Sequence record: ON062054.1
From: Escherichia phage P818
Reading direction: 5' to 3' (one strand)
Length of the DNA stretch: 49,175 nucleotides
The notes below the pieces were generated by a model, which worked only from the letters and a program-made list of their open reading frames with translations, did not search any database and was not told where the DNA came from. Position 1 is the stretch's first letter, and every line of letters starts with the position of its first letter. Shown here one piece after another: positions 3,574 to 46,710 of the stretch. The position numbers were made by a program, and so were the translations under genes.

Positions 3574-3579
<6 letters not shown>
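2911..3579 (+). CDS. Hypothetical protein (possible regulatory or DNA-binding)
   Basis: 222 aa ORF with RBS; coiled-coil-rich C-terminal half; no confident family assignment. Confidence 0.5.
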
Positions 3580-3891
<312 letters not shown>

Positions 3892-8220: not shown

Positions 8221-8256
8221 GATGTTTAGCCTTTCGTGCGATTTATCGAAGTTTCA

Positions 8257-8296: not shown

Positions 8297-8890
8297 TTAG
8301 GCCATATCTTCCGCAACGCTGTAGGCTGAGAACGTTGCTCCGCCAACTGTTCGATACCCGTATGGCACAGGGATCGGGTTTCCTGCTGCGGTAGTGTTTA
8401 CTGCGCCGCCGAATGCGTATGATGGTTTGTTCTTGCTGCTTTGAACCTCCATCTTTGAGCCGCCTTGCTGCGGTGAAATCATCTGCATTACGCCGCCGAG
8501 AACCATCGCGCCGCCCATCATGAATGCTGATGTTGCGAATGTACCCATTAGCGCCAGCGATGCGCCGCCAGTGTAGAATGCCGCCACCATCATTACCGCG
8601 CCTACAACAATCTGGAACATCCCGCCGTTTTTTGAGCCTGTAGGGATCGGGATAATGCGAACCTCTTTAGCACAAACGAATGCGGCCTCGTCATGCTGAC
8701 CTACATTCTTTCCGTCAACGAATACTGCGAAGTGCATACGTGAGCCGATCTCACTCTGCATGAACTCCTTAAACCCTTCCACCTGGGATGATAACGCCCG
8801 AATTGCTTCGGGGTATGAGTCAACGTCGAACTTATGGAAAACACCGAATCGACGGCCCAACGAGCCGGATAGCTTGATCGTTTTTAACAT
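8297..8890 (-). CDS. Tail assembly protein (lambda I-like)
   Basis: 197 aa, Gly/Ala-rich hydrophobic C-terminus; 7-nt overlap with upstream K-like gene. Confidence 0.55.
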   Translation of the reverse strand: MLKTIKLSGSLGRRFGVFHKFDVDSYPEAIRALSSQVEGFKEFMQSEIGSRMHFAVFVDGKNVGQHDEAAFVCAKEVRIIPIPTGSKNGGMFQIVVGAVMMVAAFYTGGASLALMGTFATSAFMMGGAMVLGGVMQMISPQQGGSKMEVQSSKNKPSYAFGGAVNTTAAGNPIPVPYGYRTVGGATFSAYSVAEDMA

Positions 8891-24879: not shown

Positions 24880-25058
24880 GAAATACCCCTTACATAATTA
24901 ACTAAAAATTTATGAGTCGTTGTATCGACTCCGCTCATTTTCTTCACCTTTGAAACGGCTTCTTCGGCGCTGCTGGCCTCAACCTTTGCTTCAAAGTTTT
25001 GCTTACAAGATGCGCATGTGCGACCCATTAGCAAAATAGTTAGCTTGACCTCAAACAT
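24873..25058 (-). CDS. Hypothetical small protein
   Basis: 61 aa; start chosen at ATG 6 nt after GAGG; start uncertain. Confidence 0.3.
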   Translation of the reverse strand: MFEVKLTILLMGRTCASCKQNFEAKVEASSAEEAVSKVKKMSGVDTTTHKFLVNYVRGISC

Positions 25059-26019: not shown

Positions 26020-26074
26020 TTCTGCTTCCTCGTTCGTTTCGATGGGGTAACTATACAGCTACCCCGATTATGAG

Positions 26075-26093
26075 TTTTAACAAAAAGTGCTAT
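26075..26093 (-). promoter_or_regulatory. Dyad motif copy 4
   Basis: Minus-sense TAGCACTTTTTGTTAAAA overlapping upstream stop; 22 bp then TATAGT inside a hairpin, then TACCCCATCGAAACGAA box. Confidence 0.6.
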
Positions 26094-28592: not shown

Positions 28593-28657
28593 GGTGACAT
28601 CCTCAGTTGTTTGTGTTCACTTGACAGGAGACACTATAGCTAATGTCTCCGAGCAAG

Positions 28658-30217: not shown

Positions 30218-30272
30218 AATCATTTCCTCTTCGTTGTTGATAGGGTAATCATAGCTGACTACCCGATTTATT

Positions 30273-31078: not shown

Positions 31079-31605
31079 TATTTTGTCTCCTTAATCATTT
31101 CCTGGTACATTTTGATTGCCTTGATGGCCCCTGTAATCTCATCGCCTTCAAACTCAGTCACGGATGGCATCAGCTTGAGTATTTTGACCTTAAAGTCGCT
31201 CACGGCCTTCTCTGCAATCTGGCAGTTTGCCTTCACTCGCTTTCCTGTCTGGATTGCGCCATCAACCAAAGACAGATAAGCACACCGAACCTCGACGTCA
31301 TCACCGAAATCACCATCCTTAATTGAAAGTTTTGCACGAACGTTTGCCGCCTGTATCTCTGGCATCCTGGCTACCGTATTGGAGACATATGACGCCTTCA
31401 GCTTTGCCATACTGTACTTGCCACCTACATCCAGATCCTCACGACTTATGCCTCCCATATCACTAGATGTGAGGCCGTAAACCTGGCGAGCTATTAGGTG
31501 GATTGGGACGTGGTAGCTGCGGTTCTCGGACTTGAGCGCTTGCTCCGCCATGTAGCGGATAACGTCACCAAGGCTTACTGCTTCTTTGTGTTCTGACATA
31601 CTCAT
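31078..31605 (-). CDS. Hypothetical early protein
   Basis: 175 aa; GGAG RBS; downstream of a sigma70-type promoter in control region B. Confidence 0.55.
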   Translation of the reverse strand: MSMSEHKEAVSLGDVIRYMAEQALKSENRSYHVPIHLIARQVYGLTSSDMGGISREDLDVGGKYSMAKLKASYVSNTVARMPEIQAANVRAKLSIKDGDFGDDVEVRCAYLSLVDGAIQTGKRVKANCQIAEKAVSDFKVKILKLMPSVTEFEGDEITGAIKAIKMYQEMIKETK

Positions 31606-31641
31606 TACTCCTGATTGGTTGGTCTTCGTTAAGATGACTCC

Positions 31642-31669
31642 ACAGTATCACATATCTACGCGTTATCAA
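31642..31669 (-). promoter_or_regulatory. Sigma70-type early promoter (leftward) in control region B
   Basis: Minus-sense TTGATA-16 bp-TACTGT followed by CATCTTAACGAAG box and RBS. Confidence 0.45.
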
Positions 31670-31888
31670 GTGTTATCAGTGCAAATTTTCTGAATAGTTA
31701 CAGATTTATGCCAATTTCGCCATATATAGCTAAATGTAAAGTCTGCGTACAGTTTGTAGATAAAGATTTTTAGCAAATTGGCCCCTACATGCCTTTTTAT
31801 TCCTACAATGTCGTCATATTCCTACAAGTGTAGGAAAATATCATAGAAAACTATCGCAATATCACATATCAACCATCTACATTATCTA

Positions 31889-32000
31889 CATATATATATA
31901 TTAATAATAATAATATAGATAAATGGTTATTATATAAGGATATTTTAATGTAACCATGGCGTAATTAAGCGTGATGTGCGTACATGATTCCCACGGAGTG
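31889..32000. repeat. Control-region element, copy B
   Basis: (TA)n plus (ATA)n tract followed by GATATTTTAATGTAACCATGGCGTAA; about 70% identical to 2586-2690. Confidence 0.6.
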
Positions 32001-32116
32001 ATGGCGTGTCTACATGGCATAACATAAATAACGCGTATGCGATGAAATCGTGTGGCGGAAAATCCTACCAGGCGATCAGGGGATCAGATCTCACCCCATC
32101 ATTCCCCCCATAAATG

Positions 32117-32215
32117 AATCATTGCTCAATTCGCAACAATCGAAAACATCATTGCAATAGATGCAATATTGCTATATGTGCAATAGTCATGAGAATCATT
32201 GCAATAGCTGCAACA
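32117..32215. repeat. Iteron-like cluster (ATCATTGCAATAG-type repeats)
   Basis: At least four direct copies of TCATTGC(A/T)(A/C)A(A/T)T(A/C)G within about 100 bp, just upstream of motif copy 10. Confidence 0.55.
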
Positions 32216-32231
32216 ATCCATAAATCGAACG

Positions 32232-32249: not shown

Positions 32250-32300
32250 TGACCGATCAGGTGTGATTCGCTATTGTTACCTCATCGAAACGAAGGAGAT

Positions 32301-32749: not shown

Positions 32750-32813
32750 CGAAGCCTCACGGATTGAGGCATAATCATTTCATCGAAACGAAGTACACAA
32801 AGAGGAAGTAAAA

Positions 32814-34230: not shown

Positions 34231-34294
34231 GCCCTTCGGGGCTTTTCCTGTATATTCATCCCATCGAAACGAAACACACTAAAGGAAAATAATC

Positions 34295-39421: not shown

Positions 39422-39907
39422 TTATTCTCCGTGATTCTTGTGAAATTTAAATTTTCTTTGAAATTGCATTCTACACAATTTAGCTTCCTCTATCGAGCCA
39501 AAGTAACCAAGGTGCATTAACTTTCCATCTACCTTTATCCTGGCGACATACTTTGATAGAGGTTTATGCCATGAAACACCAGTAACTCCGGTTGAGTTGT
39601 CAGATCGCATAGACTGGTTTCTTCCATTCTCCGTCCTTGTAACAAGTCTCAAATTCGATATGTTATTGTTGCTCCTGTCATGGTCTATGTGGTCTATCTC
39701 CATCCCTTCAGGTATATCTCCGTTATGGAGATACCAAACGACAATATGAACCCTGTAATTTTTTTTGTTAAACATCATTTGCCAGTATCCAGTTACTTTA
39801 CTGACGCAACCGCACTTACTGCCAACTTTTATCTTCTTGCTTTTTGATCTCTTCCAGACCAAATGAAGATCATCATCATACTCAACAAAATCAATAAGCT
39901 CTTTCAC
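39422..39907 (-). CDS. HNH endonuclease with AP2-like domain (copy 2)
   Basis: 161 aa; EIDHIDHDRSNNNISNLRLVTRTENGRN motif; paralog of copies 1 and 3. Confidence 0.8.
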   Translation of the reverse strand: MKELIDFVEYDDDLHLVWKRSKSKKIKVGSKCGCVSKVTGYWQMMFNKKNYRVHIVVWYLHNGDIPEGMEIDHIDHDRSNNNISNLRLVTRTENGRNQSMRSDNSTGVTGVSWHKPLSKYVARIKVDGKLMHLGYFGSIEEAKLCRMQFQRKFKFHKNHGE

Positions 39908-41734: not shown

Positions 41735-42007
41735 TTATTTAACCTCGGTAACTTTGCAGTTATTAACAGCGACGAACCCGCCGACGCTAACTTTGACCTG
41801 ACTTTCAGTCACGTTGTAAACTGCCTTACCCAAGAAAGTTTGCAGTTCGTAGTGATCGCCTTCACGCTCAATAACAACGCCCTTGTCTGAAACAATCTGC
41901 GACTTGGTTACTGTGAAGGATTCCTTACCGCAATCGTAAAACTTGGTATCTTCTGCACAGCCTGCCATTGCCACAACTGCTAGTAAAGCGATGATTGACT
42001 TTTTCAT
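41735..42007 (-). CDS. Putative lipoprotein
   Basis: 90 aa; signal peptide MKKSIIALLAVVAMAGC with lipobox Cys; AAGGAAAA RBS. Confidence 0.5.
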   Translation of the reverse strand: MKKSIIALLAVVAMAGCAEDTKFYDCGKESFTVTKSQIVSDKGVVIEREGDHYELQTFLGKAVYNVTESQVKVSVGGFVAVNNCKVTEVK

Positions 42008-42071
42008 TTTGTTTTCCTTGGTTGGTTACTTCGTTTCGATGAGGTGATAATACACAACCTCACCGATTCGC

Positions 42072-42092
42072 CTTTAGCAATTAGTGCTATTT
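42072..42092 (-). promoter_or_regulatory. Dyad motif copy 15
   Basis: Minus-sense AAATAGCACTAATTGCTAAAG overlapping stop; 22 bp then TATTAT in hairpin; CACCTCATCGAAACGAAG box. Confidence 0.6.
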
Positions 42093-42515
42093 TGAAATCA
42101 TTTCTTTGAATGCTGCAAGAAAACCCTCGCGACCGTAGGCTACAGCTGCGAAGCCTCCTGATTCTCTTACGCTTTTTAGGAAAGACTTCTGTTCATCACT
42201 TACGTGTTTTGCTTGTTTTTTACCAGCTCTCTTTAGTTCTATGGCACCAAACGGATAACTACCGCGCAATGAATCAGGTATTAAAAACATACAGTCTGAT
42301 ACCCCTTTAAGTAGTCCTTTAGCTTGGTCTTTCCTTGCTTGCCCAAATGTTTTCTTGTTCTCGTTAACTACATGAAAGAATACCATTTCTGGATAGTTGT
42401 ATTTAACCCAATCAGAGCAAAAGATTTGTTCGTCATCCTCCTTAGGGCATGACTTAACCGGGCCAGGGTAAAACTCAATGTAATCAACTTTGTCTGTAAT
42501 TTTCATATCAATCAT
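42087..42515 (-). CDS. VRR-NUC domain nuclease
   Basis: 142 aa; PD-(D/E)xK-like D...ELK pattern; 8-nt overlap with helicase gene. Confidence 0.55.
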   Translation of the reverse strand: MIDMKITDKVDYIEFYPGPVKSCPKEDDEQIFCSDWVKYNYPEMVFFHVVNENKKTFGQARKDQAKGLLKGVSDCMFLIPDSLRGSYPFGAIELKRAGKKQAKHVSDEQKSFLKSVRESGGFAAVAYGREGFLAAFKEMISK

Positions 42516-44502
42516 CCATAGTAAAAGATTTGTTTGCGATAATATCTTGAGACTTCTGGTTCTTACGGTGTGTAATCCTTAATGGAGCTCGGAAAAGGTG
42601 AGCATTAGTCATAATCATTTTAGCATTACGCAATCTGCCAATTCTAAAAGCCTCGGTCCTGTTCTCTATGTGAGCCGAGCAAAATGCTTTCCATTTTACA
42701 GAGCAAACTCGATGGTCTGACTCTGGGAAAAACGTCTCATATGCTCGGAACCTATCCCCACTGTGAGCCATGACCTCATATGAAGCAACAATACCTGACT
42801 GGTTCTTTGTTAAACAAATCTTGAAATCATAAACTCGCAACCAGTCCCCTTTGCGGTACATTTTCCCAGATAACTTAGCGTTTGGGTCTATTAGCATCTC
42901 TCCGCAGCATCGACAGTTTTTAGCTGCAACATCATTCTTCTCTCTACAACCTTTCTTAATAATAACTTTTGTCTGTTGGTCCTCTATATCTTCACACAAG
43001 CGAAACTGAAAGAAGTGCTCACAACGCTTCCCGTCAATTACGTTATTGCAACGACGAGCAAAAGGAGAGTTCTCATAACTACAGGCCGGACATATTCTTG
43101 GCCCATCACCGCCTTTGCGTGAAGACTTAAATTTCTGGTCCTGAACTTCCTCTATGATTGGGTCAAAGTATAATTCTGCCATGTCATCAAGGGTGCCAGC
43201 GAAGTCTAGTACCACGTGATCATCCTTAACCATCCCCATCTCCTTGTGCTTCTTCTTTAGGATACGCATACCTCGACCAAGCAACTGAATAAGCAGGGTG
43301 ATGCTTCCAACCTTGCGAAGAATTATTGAAGTATCCCACGGCGGGACGTTCACGCCGGTTGTGAGGCAACCAATCTGAAAGATGAATTTATACTTACCTT
43401 CAGCTGCGTCAGAAAGAATCTCACGACGCTTTTTCTCACCAGTAGAGTCAGTTACTATAGCCCAGGTTACACCCTCAGGAAGCGCCGCGGCTGCTTCCTC
43501 GCAATGCCGCTTGCCTGAGCAAGTTACTAGTGCTGCGTTACGATTTTCCATAAACTTGGCTGCGAACTGCATAATCTTTTGAGTCATGGACTGGTTTTGG
43601 TGAATTTTTTCCTGCATCGCATCCATTTCTTTCTTGCTAAAGTCTTTCACTCCATCACTTCCATCTGGAGCAAACTCGCTAAGGTCATAACCTAAATCGC
43701 CAACCTCGCCGTAAACAGTTGGCACAACAAACCGCAAATCAACCAGGTAATTGGTTGGCACCTGAATCACTGTTTTGCGCCAAAATCCACGGATATTTGG
43801 ATTGCTAACAACGATATGATCATTGTTGCGATACGGGCTACCAGTTAGGCCAAAGATACGAAGCTCTCGACCATACTTCTCACGACAACGACGTTTCATT
43901 TCAGTAATGATTAGCGTGTACTGCGCACGACCCGTGCCAAGCAATCCAGTATTAACGCCTTCCTTAAAAACCTTCTCACCTTTCTTTGTGCTCATTTGCT
44001 CAAATGTTTCTTCGTTCTCCTCGGCTTCAACGATATCCATGTGATCGACCATGTGGCACTCATCTATAGCTATAACGGCAGGAACATAGTCACCAAGCCC
44101 CTTAAATAAGCCGTTAGCCGCAGTTCCTTCGCTAGCAACTATGGTTGGGTAATAAACTGATTTAACGTTAAGGCCAGCGCAATAGACGCTATTACGAATG
44201 CCAAAATTGCGAAGCTCTTCGCTGTCCTGGCTCACGATCTCAGACTGGCGAGATAGCACCATATAAGGAAGCCCTAACTGTTCCATTCTCTTACCGATCA
44301 TGGCGAGAATGATAGTTTTACCAGCAGAAACCGACAGGTCTGCTATGAATGGGCTTTCATACTTCCCGATAGCCTTACCGATCGCATCAAATGTAACGCA
44401 CTGGAAATCGTAAGGAGTTATCTCTCCAAACGAGAATTCTCTCTTAATCTCTTCCATGCGATTTTTATCAAAGTTGGCGACCATTTTTTCAACGGGTAAC
44501 AT
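42508..44502 (-). CDS. SF2 ATP-dependent DNA helicase with C-terminal zinc-ribbon region
   Basis: 664 aa from ATG with AAGGTG RBS (ORF track start is upstream TTG); Walker A GKT, DECH box, Cys-rich C-terminus. Confidence 0.8.
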   Translation of the reverse strand: MLPVEKMVANFDKNRMEEIKREFSFGEITPYDFQCVTFDAIGKAIGKYESPFIADLSVSAGKTIILAMIGKRMEQLGLPYMVLSRQSEIVSQDSEELRNFGIRNSVYCAGLNVKSVYYPTIVASEGTAANGLFKGLGDYVPAVIAIDECHMVDHMDIVEAEENEETFEQMSTKKGEKVFKEGVNTGLLGTGRAQYTLIITEMKRRCREKYGRELRIFGLTGSPYRNNDHIVVSNPNIRGFWRKTVIQVPTNYLVDLRFVVPTVYGEVGDLGYDLSEFAPDGSDGVKDFSKKEMDAMQEKIHQNQSMTQKIMQFAAKFMENRNAALVTCSGKRHCEEAAAALPEGVTWAIVTDSTGEKKRREILSDAAEGKYKFIFQIGCLTTGVNVPPWDTSIILRKVGSITLLIQLLGRGMRILKKKHKEMGMVKDDHVVLDFAGTLDDMAELYFDPIIEEVQDQKFKSSRKGGDGPRICPACSYENSPFARRCNNVIDGKRCEHFFQFRLCEDIEDQQTKVIIKKGCREKNDVAAKNCRCCGEMLIDPNAKLSGKMYRKGDWLRVYDFKICLTKNQSGIVASYEVMAHSGDRFRAYETFFPESDHRVCSVKWKAFCSAHIENRTEAFRIGRLRNAKMIMTNAHLFRAPLRITHRKNQKSQDIIANKSFTMDD

Positions 44503-44521
44503 ATATAAACACCTTATAAAT

Positions 44522-44550
44522 TTGGATTTGTTGCGTTTCATTGGTATAAT
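44522..44550 (+). promoter_or_regulatory. Sigma70-type promoter for the 44601 HTH gene, overlapping the helicase promoter -10
   Basis: TTGGAT-17 bp-TATAAT with TGG extension; leader CCATCGAAACCAA then motif copy 16 then RBS GAGGTG. Confidence 0.5.
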
Positions 44551-44569
44551 AACAGCCATCGAAACCAAT

Positions 44570-44589
44570 GTTTAACAAAAAGTGCTATT
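44570..44589 (-). promoter_or_regulatory. Dyad motif copy 16 (shared by divergent helicase and HTH promoters)
   Basis: Minus-sense AATAGCACTTTTTGTTAAAC; 21 bp then TATTAT (44546-44551), 44-nt leader to helicase ATG; same site lies after the predicted start of the plus-strand promoter. Confidence 0.6.
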
Positions 44590-44600
44590 GAGGTGATAAA

Positions 44601-45074
44601 ATGAATGCAACTGATAAGCGTACTCTTAACGGCAATAACGGAACTATCCGCACAGAAGATAAGAAGCAGCGTAAGCGACCGTCAGGTTACTATGTTCTCA
44701 AGGATGAAGTAAAGGCCGGATTAAGAGCGCGACTTGATATTGTATTTGAGTTCTACGGCAGCAAGGCGAACATGGCTAAGCAATTAAAGGTTACTCGACA
44801 GGCCGTTGAAGAATGGTTTAAGCGTGGAATGATGTCGGCACGCGGCGCTCAACTGGCGCACAACAGATATAAGCGAACTGGCGAAGGGTTCCGCGCTACA
44901 TTCTGCCGCCCTGATCTGCAATTCGACGGGAACGGCAAGCCGCTAACGCTGCGTTGCAAAAAGCGTCACATGCTGCGCGTCGTCACCGAGGCTGAACTAG
45001 CCACTAAGCCTGAATGTCGCTCATGGCGAAAAATTAAAGCAGCAAACGAAGCAGCACGGAAAGCTAAAGAATGA
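44601..45074 (+). CDS. HTH DNA-binding protein (Cro/YdaS-like), candidate regulator
   Basis: 157 aa; HTH-like segment SKANMAKQLKVTRQAVEEWFKRG; basic C-terminal half. Confidence 0.55.
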   Translation: MNATDKRTLNGNNGTIRTEDKKQRKRPSGYYVLKDEVKAGLRARLDIVFEFYGSKANMAKQLKVTRQAVEEWFKRGMMSARGAQLAHNRYKRTGEGFRATFCRPDLQFDGNGKPLTLRCKKRHMLRVVTEAELATKPECRSWRKIKAANEAARKAKE

Positions 45075-45080
45075 CAATCA

Positions 45081-45096
45081 AGGGGCGCTAGCCCCT
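45081..45096. terminator. Hairpin between convergent genes (weak terminator)
   Basis: AGGGGCGCTAGCCCCT palindrome; no strong T-run. Confidence 0.35.
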
Positions 45097-45105
45097 TCAT
45101 CTGAT

Positions 45106-45654
45106 CTATCTATCTCCGTCACACCCAAACTCACCATGATAATAATTACTGGCTTTTAAGTACGCTTCACGCGCCGACTCCTTTGTGGTATGCCTTCCTA
45201 GCCATATTTTTTTATTATTAACCCATATCCACGCCGTGTACTTCCCTGTTTGCTTGCAGAATCCAACGCCTTTTACTCCTGATGTATTGTGAGATGGTTT
45301 TTTCATATTTCTATTGTTCTCAGATGATGACGCTTCCCTTAGGTTTTCTATCCTATTGTCAGTCCTGATCCCGTTTTTATGATCTATATACTTAGAAGGC
45401 CATTCACCTTTACAAAGCGCCCATGAAACCCTATGGCATTTAACGTCGAATCCGAAAAATCTGAAAACCTTATAACCAGATTTATGGACCGTTCCGGCCT
45501 CATCTCCAGATTTAACCCTATTAGATGTGCTTTTTACCCAAATTATAACTCCGTTGTCGTATTTAAGGTAATTCCTAAGCATATCAATACTAATCAATGA
45601 CTCTTTTGCCTTCATTAAATCAAAGTCTTTGCTCATTTCATTTTCCTCATTCAT
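45106..45654 (-). CDS. HNH endonuclease with AP2-like domain (copy 3)
   Basis: 182 aa; YIDHKNGIRTDNRIENLREASSSENNRN motif. Confidence 0.8.
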   Translation of the reverse strand: MNEENEMSKDFDLMKAKESLISIDMLRNYLKYDNGVIIWVKSTSNRVKSGDEAGTVHKSGYKVFRFFGFDVKCHRVSWALCKGEWPSKYIDHKNGIRTDNRIENLREASSSENNRNMKKPSHNTSGVKGVGFCKQTGKYTAWIWVNNKKIWLGRHTTKESAREAYLKASNYYHGEFGCDGDR

Positions 45655-45697
45655 GTGTTATGCTTTTAATCATACCAACCGTAACATGAGATAGTCA

Positions 45698-46639
45698 ATG
45701 ATGGATATGTATCAAAAAGAGGAAGTTATACCTTACATGAAGGGTCTTTGGAGGGAAGCTCTGCAATCAATATGTGGCCTTGATAACTCATACTTCACGA
45801 AGCGACATGGGCCATGCCCGCATTGCTTTGGAAAGGACCGTTTCCGGTGGACTGACGAACTAGAATCCCCTGGTGACGGCGGCGCGATCTGTAACGGATG
45901 TGGTAACGATAAAGGCGTCGGCTGGATGATGAAACTGACTGGTGAGCCTTACAGTGAAGTGATTAACATCCTTGGTAGATTCCTTGGTAAAGTTCCGCAG
46001 GATTACAAAGCTAAGGCTTACCGCAGGGCGTCTCGCGTACCGGAGAAAGGCCTTGGCAGGATGGCGGATCATGAGTCGTGCGTATCTGTAATGGAGCGCA
46101 CAGAAAAGCGCGAGAGCACCGATTTAAGCGTGTATGAGTGCCTAACCGAAGATTCATATGATGTTGGCGTAAAAGTGCGTCAGAATGGCACTGAGGAGCT
46201 AATACACGCACTACCGTGCTACATGGTCCACCATGACGGAATTGATGAGGATATGTGTAACGTCATGTTTGCTTATGATAATGGCGAATACACTTTCCTT
46301 GCGCGTGATTATTCTCGCGGCTCAGTGGTTAAGCTGGGGAGTGGTGAGGATGATGCAGCTATATATATGACAAGCGATCTGATTGATGGTTATCGTGTGA
46401 AGATGGCGACCAGTCAGGAAGTGTGGGTGACTTTCTCCCCTGAGAATCTTGAGATTGTTGCTTATCGTTATCGTGGCGATCGAGAGTTGCGAGTTGCTTG
46501 TGCGGCTGACGATTTGAGAACGCTTTACATGGCTGATGAGAGAGATTTGAAGGTCGTCGTGCCGAACGGTGGAAACTTCAAGATGGGCCTTGAGCGAAAG
46601 CTATATACGCCGCAGGATCTGATAGATAAGTATTCATGA
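45698..46639 (+). CDS. Putative DNA primase (zinc-binding N-terminal domain)
   Basis: 313 aa; CPHC...CNGC zinc-ribbon-like motif near N-terminus; adjacent to helicase. Confidence 0.55.
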   Translation: MMDMYQKEEVIPYMKGLWREALQSICGLDNSYFTKRHGPCPHCFGKDRFRWTDELESPGDGGAICNGCGNDKGVGWMMKLTGEPYSEVINILGRFLGKVPQDYKAKAYRRASRVPEKGLGRMADHESCVSVMERTEKRESTDLSVYECLTEDSYDVGVKVRQNGTEELIHALPCYMVHHDGIDEDMCNVMFAYDNGEYTFLARDYSRGSVVKLGSGEDDAAIYMTSDLIDGYRVKMATSQEVWVTFSPENLEIVAYRYRGDRELRVACAADDLRTLYMADERDLKVVVPNGGNFKMGLERKLYTPQDLIDKYS

Positions 46640-46644
46640 CAATT

Positions 46645-46668
46645 ACCCGCTACGGCGGGTTTTTTTAT
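46645..46668 (+). terminator. Intrinsic terminator after primase gene
   Basis: ACCCGCTACGGCGGGT hairpin followed by TTTTTTT. Confidence 0.75.
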
Positions 46669-46692
46669 TCCTTTGTTATGATACAATGCTCT

Positions 46693-46710
46693 TTAGCAAT
46701 TCGTGCTAAA
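46693..46710. promoter_or_regulatory. Dyad motif copy 17 (perfect palindrome TTTAGCA-ATTCG-TGCTAAA)
   Basis: Only perfect copy; lies between an extended -10-like TGATACAAT (46679-46687) and the tail fiber RBS. Confidence 0.6.

Follow-up and report, generated by a model that had tools for sequence, protein, structure and literature searches.

In the DNA of Escherichia phage P818 (sequence record ON062054.1; 49,175 nucleotides (nt), the whole of which we call the window), the region 44520-44600 lies between a leftward helicase gene and a rightward Cro-like helix-turn-helix (HTH) gene beginning at 44601, and on balance we read it as a bidirectional switch driven by a host activator. We hold its anatomy with high confidence: one -10 core serves two divergent promoters, and a motif that recurs throughout the window occupies the -35 region of the leftward one. 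By its sequence this motif is a copy of the host marbox and not a novel phage operator, and a host protein of the MarA/SoxS/Rob type is, by a modest preference, its probable binder. The features on which this reading depends are as follows.

42508..44502, minus strand: helicase gene, 664 amino acids from the ATG at 44502, Pfam Helicase_C at 1.4e-09, from the list of open reading frames (ORFs)
44522..44527, plus strand: -35 hexamer TTGGAT of the rightward (HTH gene) promoter, read from the sequence
44542..44551, both strands: shared -10 core TGgTATAATA (plus TATAAT at 44545-44550, minus TATTAT at 44551-44546), from the sequence and a promoter scan
~44539 (minus strand) and ~44557 (plus strand): predicted start sites, placed at the -10 position + 7 nt, 18 bp apart
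44570..44589, minus strand: marbox-type motif AATAGCACTTTTTGTTAAAC, with GCAC at 44585-44582 and AAA at 44573-44571
44590..44595, plus strand: Shine-Dalgarno (SD) sequence GAGGTG of the HTH gene, read from the sequence, kept as GAGG or GGAG in relatives
44601..45074, plus strand: Cro-like HTH gene, 157 amino acids, of the Rtp52 / T1 gp23 family, annotated as 'transcriptional regulator' in relatives

The rightward promoter is of the sigma-70 type, with TTGGAT, a 17-nt spacer and a TATAAT that carries an extended -10 (TG at 44542-44543, at -15/-14), and it has no motif upstream. The leftward promoter is made up of TAAACA (44574-44569), 17 nt and TATTAT, with its own upstream TG at 44554-44553. 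The two -10 hexamers are offset by 1 nt, have five of six bases in common and overlap on the two strands within one short pseudo-symmetric sequence, which is the arrangement of a bidirectional promoter. In bacterial bidirectional promoters the divergent starts lie ~18 bp (or 10 or 23 bp) apart, 18 bp being the commonest distance (PMC12825309), and the 18 bp between the predicted starts at 44539 and 44557 suggest the same geometry here. The motif copy at 44570-44589 covers the -35 position (TAAACA) of the helicase promoter, with 19 nt from its AAA to TATTAT; it lies within the plus-strand leader and abuts the SD sequence GAGGTG of the ATG at 44601.

All of the sequence elements that a preliminary description of this DNA had named at 44520-44600 were recovered to within 1-2 nt. 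TTGGAT-17-TATAAT stands before the 44601 gene, the motif copy sits in the HTH leader after the predicted start (~+13 to +32), and the minus-strand TATTAT overlaps the plus-strand -10, so that the two promoters could not be occupied together. The suggestion that the motif is placed to activate the helicase promoter also holds. The gap of 21 bp given between motif and TATTAT needs a qualification: the motif is upstream of TATTAT, but the gap counted from the AAA is 19 nt, and 21 depends on the motif end chosen. Finally, the promoters had been called face-to-face and are in fact back-to-back, firing apart from ~44557 and ~44539.

Most transcription units of the phage are served by one promoter family, whose upstream half is this motif. 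Using the pattern TTTAGCAANNNGTGCTATT, 18 matches were found in the window (0.6 expected), and 15-16 copies have the same layout, namely AATAGCAC-N5-TTGYTAAA, 19-21 nt, a -10 (TATAGT, TATAAT or TATTAT), a leader, an SD sequence and a start codon. The copy at 44570-89, a typical family member, points leftward into the helicase operon, and its score with the family's position weight matrix, 31.6, is inside the family range. The leader after the family -10 often begins CATCGAAACGAA. This sequence stands at the predicted +1, for example at 3628-3639, 26033-26044, 32285-32296, 32782-32793, 34262-34273 and 42030-42041, it recurs in T1, GH-K3 and Motto, and it may act in the RNA, as a 5' element, or in the DNA, as a site near +1.

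MarA, SoxS and Rob, AraC-family activators that bind as monomers, recognise the marbox. When the window was searched with the published consensus, 5'-GCAHWWWWTGYYAAA-3' (PMC6900184), 16 matches with at most one mismatch were found against 1.4 expected, and eight were perfect, among them 44571-85. With an older, 20-position version of the consensus, AYnGCACnnWnnRYYAAAYn, 18 matches with at most one mismatch were found against 1.1 expected, 44570-88 being perfect. The helicase copy has no mismatch to GCAHWWWWTGYYAAA or to AYNGCACNNWNNRYYAAAY, and the copy at 2757-2774, ATGGCACGTTTTGCTAAA, agrees at 17 of 18 positions with the marbox of E. coli mar given in PMC8279559. The agreement extends to the degeneracy of the sites: in 155 distinct sites from 85 loci, the variable positions are the degenerate ones of the marbox (T/c at 3, C/t at 8, W at 10-11 and C/t at 15). 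As a cross-check, a matrix built from phage sites only was run over seven promoter regions of E. coli K-12. Its best match was the published marbox in mar (p = 0.001) and in micF, and in the acrAB region the matrix picked the known marbox, which lies at the start codon of acrR. For fumC and zwf the best matches fell on the positions that we take to be their marboxes, and in the sodA and fpr regions the phage-only matrix picked no site. The phage sites score 24-34 with this matrix and the chromosomal marboxes at most 16 on a shorter 20-position core, the two scales being different.

The conservation of the motif is asymmetric. GCAC is invariant on the distal side and GYTAAA on the proximal side, positions 8 (C) and 12 (T) are conserved yet non-complementary, and AA stands at both flanks. 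The distal G of GCA is 99% conserved and its symmetry partner is C in 70% and T in 26%, with no compensating change at position 5. Although the motif holds a 5+5 bp inverted repeat, TAGCA-N5-TGCTA, whose arms are 10 bp apart centre to centre, only these 5+5 bp are complementary, and the motif is thus not a two-fold symmetric operator of the lambda OR kind. Such asymmetric conservation is more readily expected of a monomer that reads DNA with two unlike heads than of a symmetric dimer.

The register of the sites is also that of a known promoter class. A class II marbox is in forward orientation and centred at -36 to -55 (PMC12052159), and the phage sites are forward, overlap the -35, have 19-21 nt between AAA and -10 and are centred at ~-40 from the predicted starts. 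In the cryo-electron microscopy structure of the Rob-micF activation complex, Rob contacts G-47 and A-45 and displaces sigma region 4 from the -35 (PMC9178005). In micF of MG1655 the AAA is followed by 20 nt and TAGAAT, and 20 nt is also the commonest gap in the phage; at this gap, positions -47 and -45, which Rob contacts in micF, are taken by the G and the A of GCAC. With its 19-nt gap the helicase copy is shifted by 1 nt, and from sequence and register we infer that the helicase promoter is a class II marbox promoter. Since the match covers sequence, degeneracy, orientation and register, and since the host supplies these proteins, a reader of the MarA/SoxS/Rob type would be the simplest explanation.

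Compared with known systems, the phage sites resemble class II promoters such as micF and fumC: the marbox is asymmetric and 20 bp long, its A site is GCAC and its B site YAAA, it is forward and over the -35, and the canonical -35 is weak or absent. Most copies also share with micF the order AAA, 20 nt, -10. Unlike E. coli class II promoters, they are the general promoter type of a virulent genome, with 16-25 of them per 45-50 kb, and unlike chromosomal marboxes they are much closer to the consensus (on scores whose scales differ), host-factor binding being predicted here from sequence. A middle promoter of the T4 MotA/AsiA kind was also considered, as it likewise has a conserved box in place of the -35, followed by a normal -10, and its box contains TGCTA/TGCTT. 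In T4 the MotA box has its centre at -30 and stands 11-13 bp from the -10. We rejected this candidate on the gap, which is 19-21 nt in the phage; in addition, the conserved element reaches -50, and no MotA or AsiA homologue was seen in the phage.

The arrangement at the helicase/HTH junction is conserved among relatives. From 79 IMG/VR loci and the genomes of T1, GH-K3, Motto and Vc1, we obtained 62 distinct helicase/HTH intergenic regions of T1-like phages (Drexlerviridae), and in every one of them a reversed marbox is followed, after 19-20 nt, by a minus -10 overlapping the plus -10. The offset between the -10 hexamers is 1 nt in 54 regions and 4 nt in eight, and the marbox begins 20-23 nt after the plus -10. 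The plus -10 is TATAAT in 49, TACAAT in eight and TATCAT in three, the minus -10 is TATTAT in 52, TAGTAT in seven and TATGAT in three, and a plus -35 equivalent at 16-18 nt spacing is found in 62/62, with a quality that ranges from TTGTCA to TTCATG. T1 has ~20 motif sites, one of which is upstream of helicase gene 22, divergent from regulator gene 23. The same motif is present in Klebsiella phage GH-K3, 'Pseudomonas' phage Motto and 'Vibrio' phage Vc1, and in a scan of viral contigs for ATAGCACNNNNTGCTAAA, among the matches listed, the contigs with multiple copies were T1-like and single matches looked like chance.

The rightward half of the promoter shows marks of its own. The predicted plus transcript begins CCATCGAAACC, with the same leader start, CATCGAAAC, as in the motif promoters (44557-44566). 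Among the 15 clear family promoters of the window, only the helicase promoter has the base after the -10 that completes TATAAT on the opposite strand, and the BPROM and phiSITE annotations of SU57 and EC3a independently place a promoter at the plus-strand position. The retention of the plus -10 in 62/62 regions, together with the unique completing base and the family leader, argues that the rightward promoter is under selection and is not an accident of symmetry.

Based on these features, we propose the following mechanism. One near-palindromic -10 core (TATAATA) serves both the rightward promoter of the Cro-like gene and the leftward promoter of the helicase operon, and a 20-bp forward marbox replaces the leftward -35 region to give a class II promoter, a design that most other transcription units of the phage share. 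A monomeric host activator (MarA, SoxS or Rob; RamA in Klebsiella and Salmonella) would bind the marbox, contact sigma region 4 and the alpha C-terminal domain, and recruit RNA polymerase leftward. Strong leftward activation would exclude rightward initiation, because both polymerase orientations need the same -10 core, and less Cro-like protein would be made. Without activator the Cro-like gene would win through its better core promoter (4/6 -35, 17-nt spacer, perfect extended -10). The Cro-like protein itself would not be the reader of the motif.

A precedent for this logic is found in E. coli PacrA/acrR, where SoxS activates acrA and abolishes acrR transcription through competition for RNA polymerase, and where bound SoxS does not block elongation (PMC12825309). 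As in the phage, the two genes are divergent and use one -10 core, and the regulator gene carries the marbox within its first transcribed stretch; the activator raises one direction and lowers the regulator gene by polymerase competition, and we propose the same for the phage locus. Two differences are to be kept in mind. First, in our scan the acrAB marbox is reversed relative to acrA and further upstream, and is taken as class I-like, whereas the phage copy is forward, over the -35 and class II. Second, AcrR is a TetR-type protein that represses both promoters, and the putative phage regulator is Cro-like. The preliminary idea that one site could have two outcomes, activating the helicase and repressing the HTH gene at once, therefore stands by virtue of the overlapping promoters and the acrA/acrR precedent, but the reader it proposed, the 44601 product, is probably wrong.

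Several observations weigh against a host-driven switch. Cells that are not under stress contain little MarA or SoxS and keep most of their Rob sequestered (PMC2787020), and it would be odd for a fast lytic phage to rely on scarce activators; basal activity or a phage-encoded helper would be needed. The helicase promoter, with its extended -10 and 4/6 -35-like hexamer, may be fairly active without activator. The inverted repeat TAGCA-N5-TGCTA would also suit a dimeric HTH protein, and the motif-free sigma-70 promoter of the Cro-like gene is what would be expected for an early activator gene. In addition, the same motif is found in phages labelled as infecting Vibrio cholerae (Vc1) and Pseudomonas aeruginosa (Motto), both with 44-45% G+C. 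T1-like genomes with this G+C content and the same marbox promoters are filed under non-enteric hosts, namely MG0656xx (Campylobacter), PP134917 (Pseudomonas syringae), ON843697 (P. aeruginosa) and NC_054898 (V. cholerae). It may be that these labels are unreliable; otherwise the motif can function without the MarA/SoxS/Rob of enteric hosts.

A phage-encoded homologue of MarA, SoxS or Rob was rejected as the reader. With MarA, SoxS and Rob as queries, no AraC/MarA-like protein was found by tblastn or by a three-sequence hidden Markov model (HMM) on six-frame translations of the window, T1 and GH-K3, and Pfam scans of 26 window ORFs, covering those of 95 amino acids and above, gave no AraC-type domain.

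This negative result bears on one alternative that we consider unlikely, in which the motif is an extended core element for sigma-70 RNA polymerase itself, or is read by some other phage protein, for example a small one made early, whose MarA-like fold has diverged beyond the reach of sequence searches. Many window ORFs have no Pfam match, TAAACN is similar to a weak -35, and in ordinary broth, a medium in which most Rob is inactive (PMC2787020), T1 multiplies quickly. However, most family members would be weak as sigma-70-only promoters, with 3-4/6 matches in the -35, an 18-nt spacer and no extended -10, and the strongest conservation, GCAC, lies 10 bp upstream of the -35 position and is not UP-element sequence. 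For another phage protein, the HMM and Pfam searches offered no candidate of the AraC type, and consensus marboxes would bind the host proteins anyway when these are present.

Another alternative, which we rate as quite unlikely, is that the Cro-like protein encoded at 44601 is made early from its motif-free sigma-70 promoter, binds TAGCA-N5-TGCTA as a dimer in every motif copy, activates from ~-41 and shuts off its own promoter. The preliminary description had regarded the 44601 product as the most economical binder of the motif, and its reading of the fold as Cro-like was borne out: the protein has an all-alpha Cro fold with a helix-turn-helix. Its Pfam scores for P22_Cro and YdaS_toxin stay below the gathering thresholds (20.8 bits, with 30.2 required, and 22 bits, with 30 required); precomputed matches to PF15943 or PF14549 exist for several homologues, and a profile search of PDB sequences gives weak support for a Cro-type domain. 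No other transcription regulator is annotated, and 824 Drexlerviridae records contain this one. Its own promoter, without an upstream motif and with a perfect extended -10, the 5-bp inverted arms of the motif 10 bp apart centre to centre, and the presence of the motif in relatives labelled with non-enteric hosts would all suit such a role.

Set against this is the behaviour of the HTH itself. When 28 diverse homologues were aligned, and likewise 48 distinct sequences taken from the loci, it was the most variable segment, with a mean column conservation of 0.57 (residues 54-71) compared with 0.88 for residues 5-44. Residue 66, in the recognition helix, is conserved at 25%, residue 70 at 50% and residue 71 at 56%, and helix 3 differs by group (TRQAVEEW, SNQTVQGW, SIQVVQQW and PYVTVRNAY), the motif being the same in all groups. 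In all, 27 HTH variants face one motif consensus, and recognition helix and operator are neither conserved together nor changed together. Because the HTH is its least conserved part while the motif is invariant and asymmetric (G at 99% against C at 70% or T at 26%; C8 and T12 non-complementary), the 44601 protein looks like a poor candidate for the motif reader. If it were the reader, one would have to accept as chance that the motif agrees with the marbox at each specified position and also stands in the class II register. Its motif-free promoter is not unique either, as the leftward gene ending at 31605 also seems to have one (TTGATA, 16 nt, TGaTACTGT). For a consensus class II marbox the known host proteins are more economical, and the claim for the 44601 product is left unsupported.

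The same contrast separates the locus from lambda OR. There cI activates PRM from -42 and represses the divergent PR, much as the preliminary description imagined for an HTH protein near -41. Lambda PR and PRM are separate promoters ~80 bp apart with symmetric operators. In the phage, unlike lambda OR, the -10 hexamers overlap, and the site, which lacks symmetry, stays constant while the candidate protein varies in its HTH.

The most conserved parts of the 44601 product lie outside the HTH. They are residues 5-45, which are basic and partly disordered, and residues 96-128 (FCRPDLxFDxNGKP...C, with two invariant cysteines), and neither matched a family or a solved structure. The invariant parts of the family are an N-terminal basic DKRTxNGNNGTxR...RKRPxGYYVLKDEVKAGL and a C-terminal GYRAxFCRPDLxFDxNGKP...C, and these may contact a conserved host partner rather than DNA.

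Least probable by far is that the plus promoter is an unused by-product of -10 symmetry, the Cro-like gene being expressed otherwise and no switch existing: -10 hexamers are near-symmetric by nature and some relatives have a poor plus -35 (TTCATG, TTTATT), but no other upstream promoter can serve the gene, the helicase gene being on the other strand, and the universal plus -10 (a perfect TATAAT in 49 regions), the completing base found at the helicase promoter only, the family leader CATCGAAAC and the BPROM and phiSITE annotations all argue for use.

Inverted repeats are a further feature of the promoter family, and one of them brackets the shared -10.

44539..44570, both strands: inverted repeat CATTGGT (44539-45) / ACCAATG (44564-70)

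This repeat was considered as an operator of the 44601 protein and rejected, because similar repeats with unrelated sequences occur at most family promoters and because it is missing in one locus (L017) despite the same recognition helix; it is probably not such an operator. Perfect inverted repeats of variable sequence stand at most marbox promoters, in the spacer or around the -10 (for example GGGGTA..TATAGT..TACCCC), and in the window, T1, GH-K3 and Motto a stem of at least 6 bp was present at 55% of 62 promoters compared with 5% of shuffles. Examples in the window are 26033-26058, 28630-28655, 30245-30270 and 42045-42070; in these repeats generally the 3' arm ends just short of the predicted start site. 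Some of the inverted repeats at marbox promoters are terminator hairpins annotated in T1.

Other observations concern the placement of the marbox relative to genes. Upstream genes end with their stop codon within the marbox or right at its distal edge, often at the TAG of AATAGCAC, and the overlap of gene end and next promoter is systematic. It is seen with the minus-strand genes at 26090, 26892, 28248, 28673, 30288, 38288, 40776 and 42087 and with the plus-strand genes at 3579, 32735 and 34229. Marbox-like sites also stand directly against start codons, with no room for a -10, at 8224-8243 in the window and at 25017-25041 and 8358-8382 in T1. The genes concerned are a tail protein J-like gene in both phages and terS in T1, and these sites are conserved between T1 and the window, outside the promoter layout. 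The stretch from the primase terminator (46645-46660) to the start of the tailspike gene contains, at 46692-46710, TTTAGCAATTCGTGCTAAA, whose 7-bp arms form a perfect palindrome. This is the only motif copy symmetric enough for both orientations, and it has no suitable -10 on either side.

The surroundings of the switch are those of known relatives, as the part of the window from 42000 to 46700 is 80-86% identical to Rtp-like and T1-like E. coli siphophages (Drexlerviridae). The helicase gene is annotated there as ATP-dependent helicase. Its true start is the ATG at 44502, which has the SD sequence AAGGTG upstream, and not the upstream TTG of the mechanical ORF; with this start the helicase/HTH intergenic region is 98 bp. 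Leftward, the helicase gene, the first of its operon, is followed by genes for a VRR-NUC nuclease and a Dam methylase. Rightward, the 44601 gene is followed by an inserted HNH-AP2 endonuclease gene on the other strand and then by primase and tailspike genes. The HNH-AP2 homing-endonuclease gene (45106-45654, minus strand), between the 44601 gene and the primase gene, is absent in SU57 and on the opposite strand in EC3a, and a second HNH-AP2 gene is found at 39422-39778. At the place equivalent to the insertion, T1 has a marbox promoter for primase, and the window has only a weak remnant (45047-45071) inside the end of the 44601 gene. Elsewhere, 31606-32230 is a 625-bp non-coding AT-rich region between divergent units, with CTACA repeats and TTGCAATAG-type iterons (32116-32223); a 71-nt element in it recurs at 2593-2663 with 80% identity. 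In character it resembles an origin or a packaging region.

Neither class II marbox promoters nor bidirectional promoters are new in themselves. No description was found of a lytic phage family whose general promoter element is the consensus marbox and which has a marbox-controlled bidirectional promoter at the junction of replication and regulator genes. The T1-like genome papers that we checked give only counts of software-predicted sigma-70 promoters, and no paper was found that ties the marbox, Rob, MarA or SoxS to T1-like phages; the original T1 and Rtp genome papers lay outside this search, and an earlier remark on a 'conserved promoter sequence' is possible there.

We tentatively propose, as a possibility that falls short of our favoured expectation, that T1-like phages place nearly their whole transcription programme under host MarA/SoxS/Rob/RamA through 15-25 consensus class II marboxes per genome, so that development would be coupled to antibiotic, bile-salt or oxidative stress. 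The phage marboxes, numerous and of high affinity, could then titrate activators off the host's resistance regulon in the course of infection, and the helicase/Cro-like promoter would convert the host signal into a choice between replication genes and the phage regulator. If the 44601 protein is the reader after all, a Cro-fold protein reading a marbox-like sequence would also be new. If the proposal is true, the family would offer for study a set of natural class II marbox promoters that are close to consensus, along with a bidirectional switch that is also natural, and the transcription organisation of phages without their own RNA polymerase or sigma factor would be explained. In addition, T1 and hundreds of Klebsiella, E. 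coli and Salmonella phages that are candidates for therapy would grow differently in mar/sox/rob/ram-induced or mutant hosts. Such states are common in multidrug-resistant clinical isolates, and resistance regulation would thus be linked directly to phage susceptibility.

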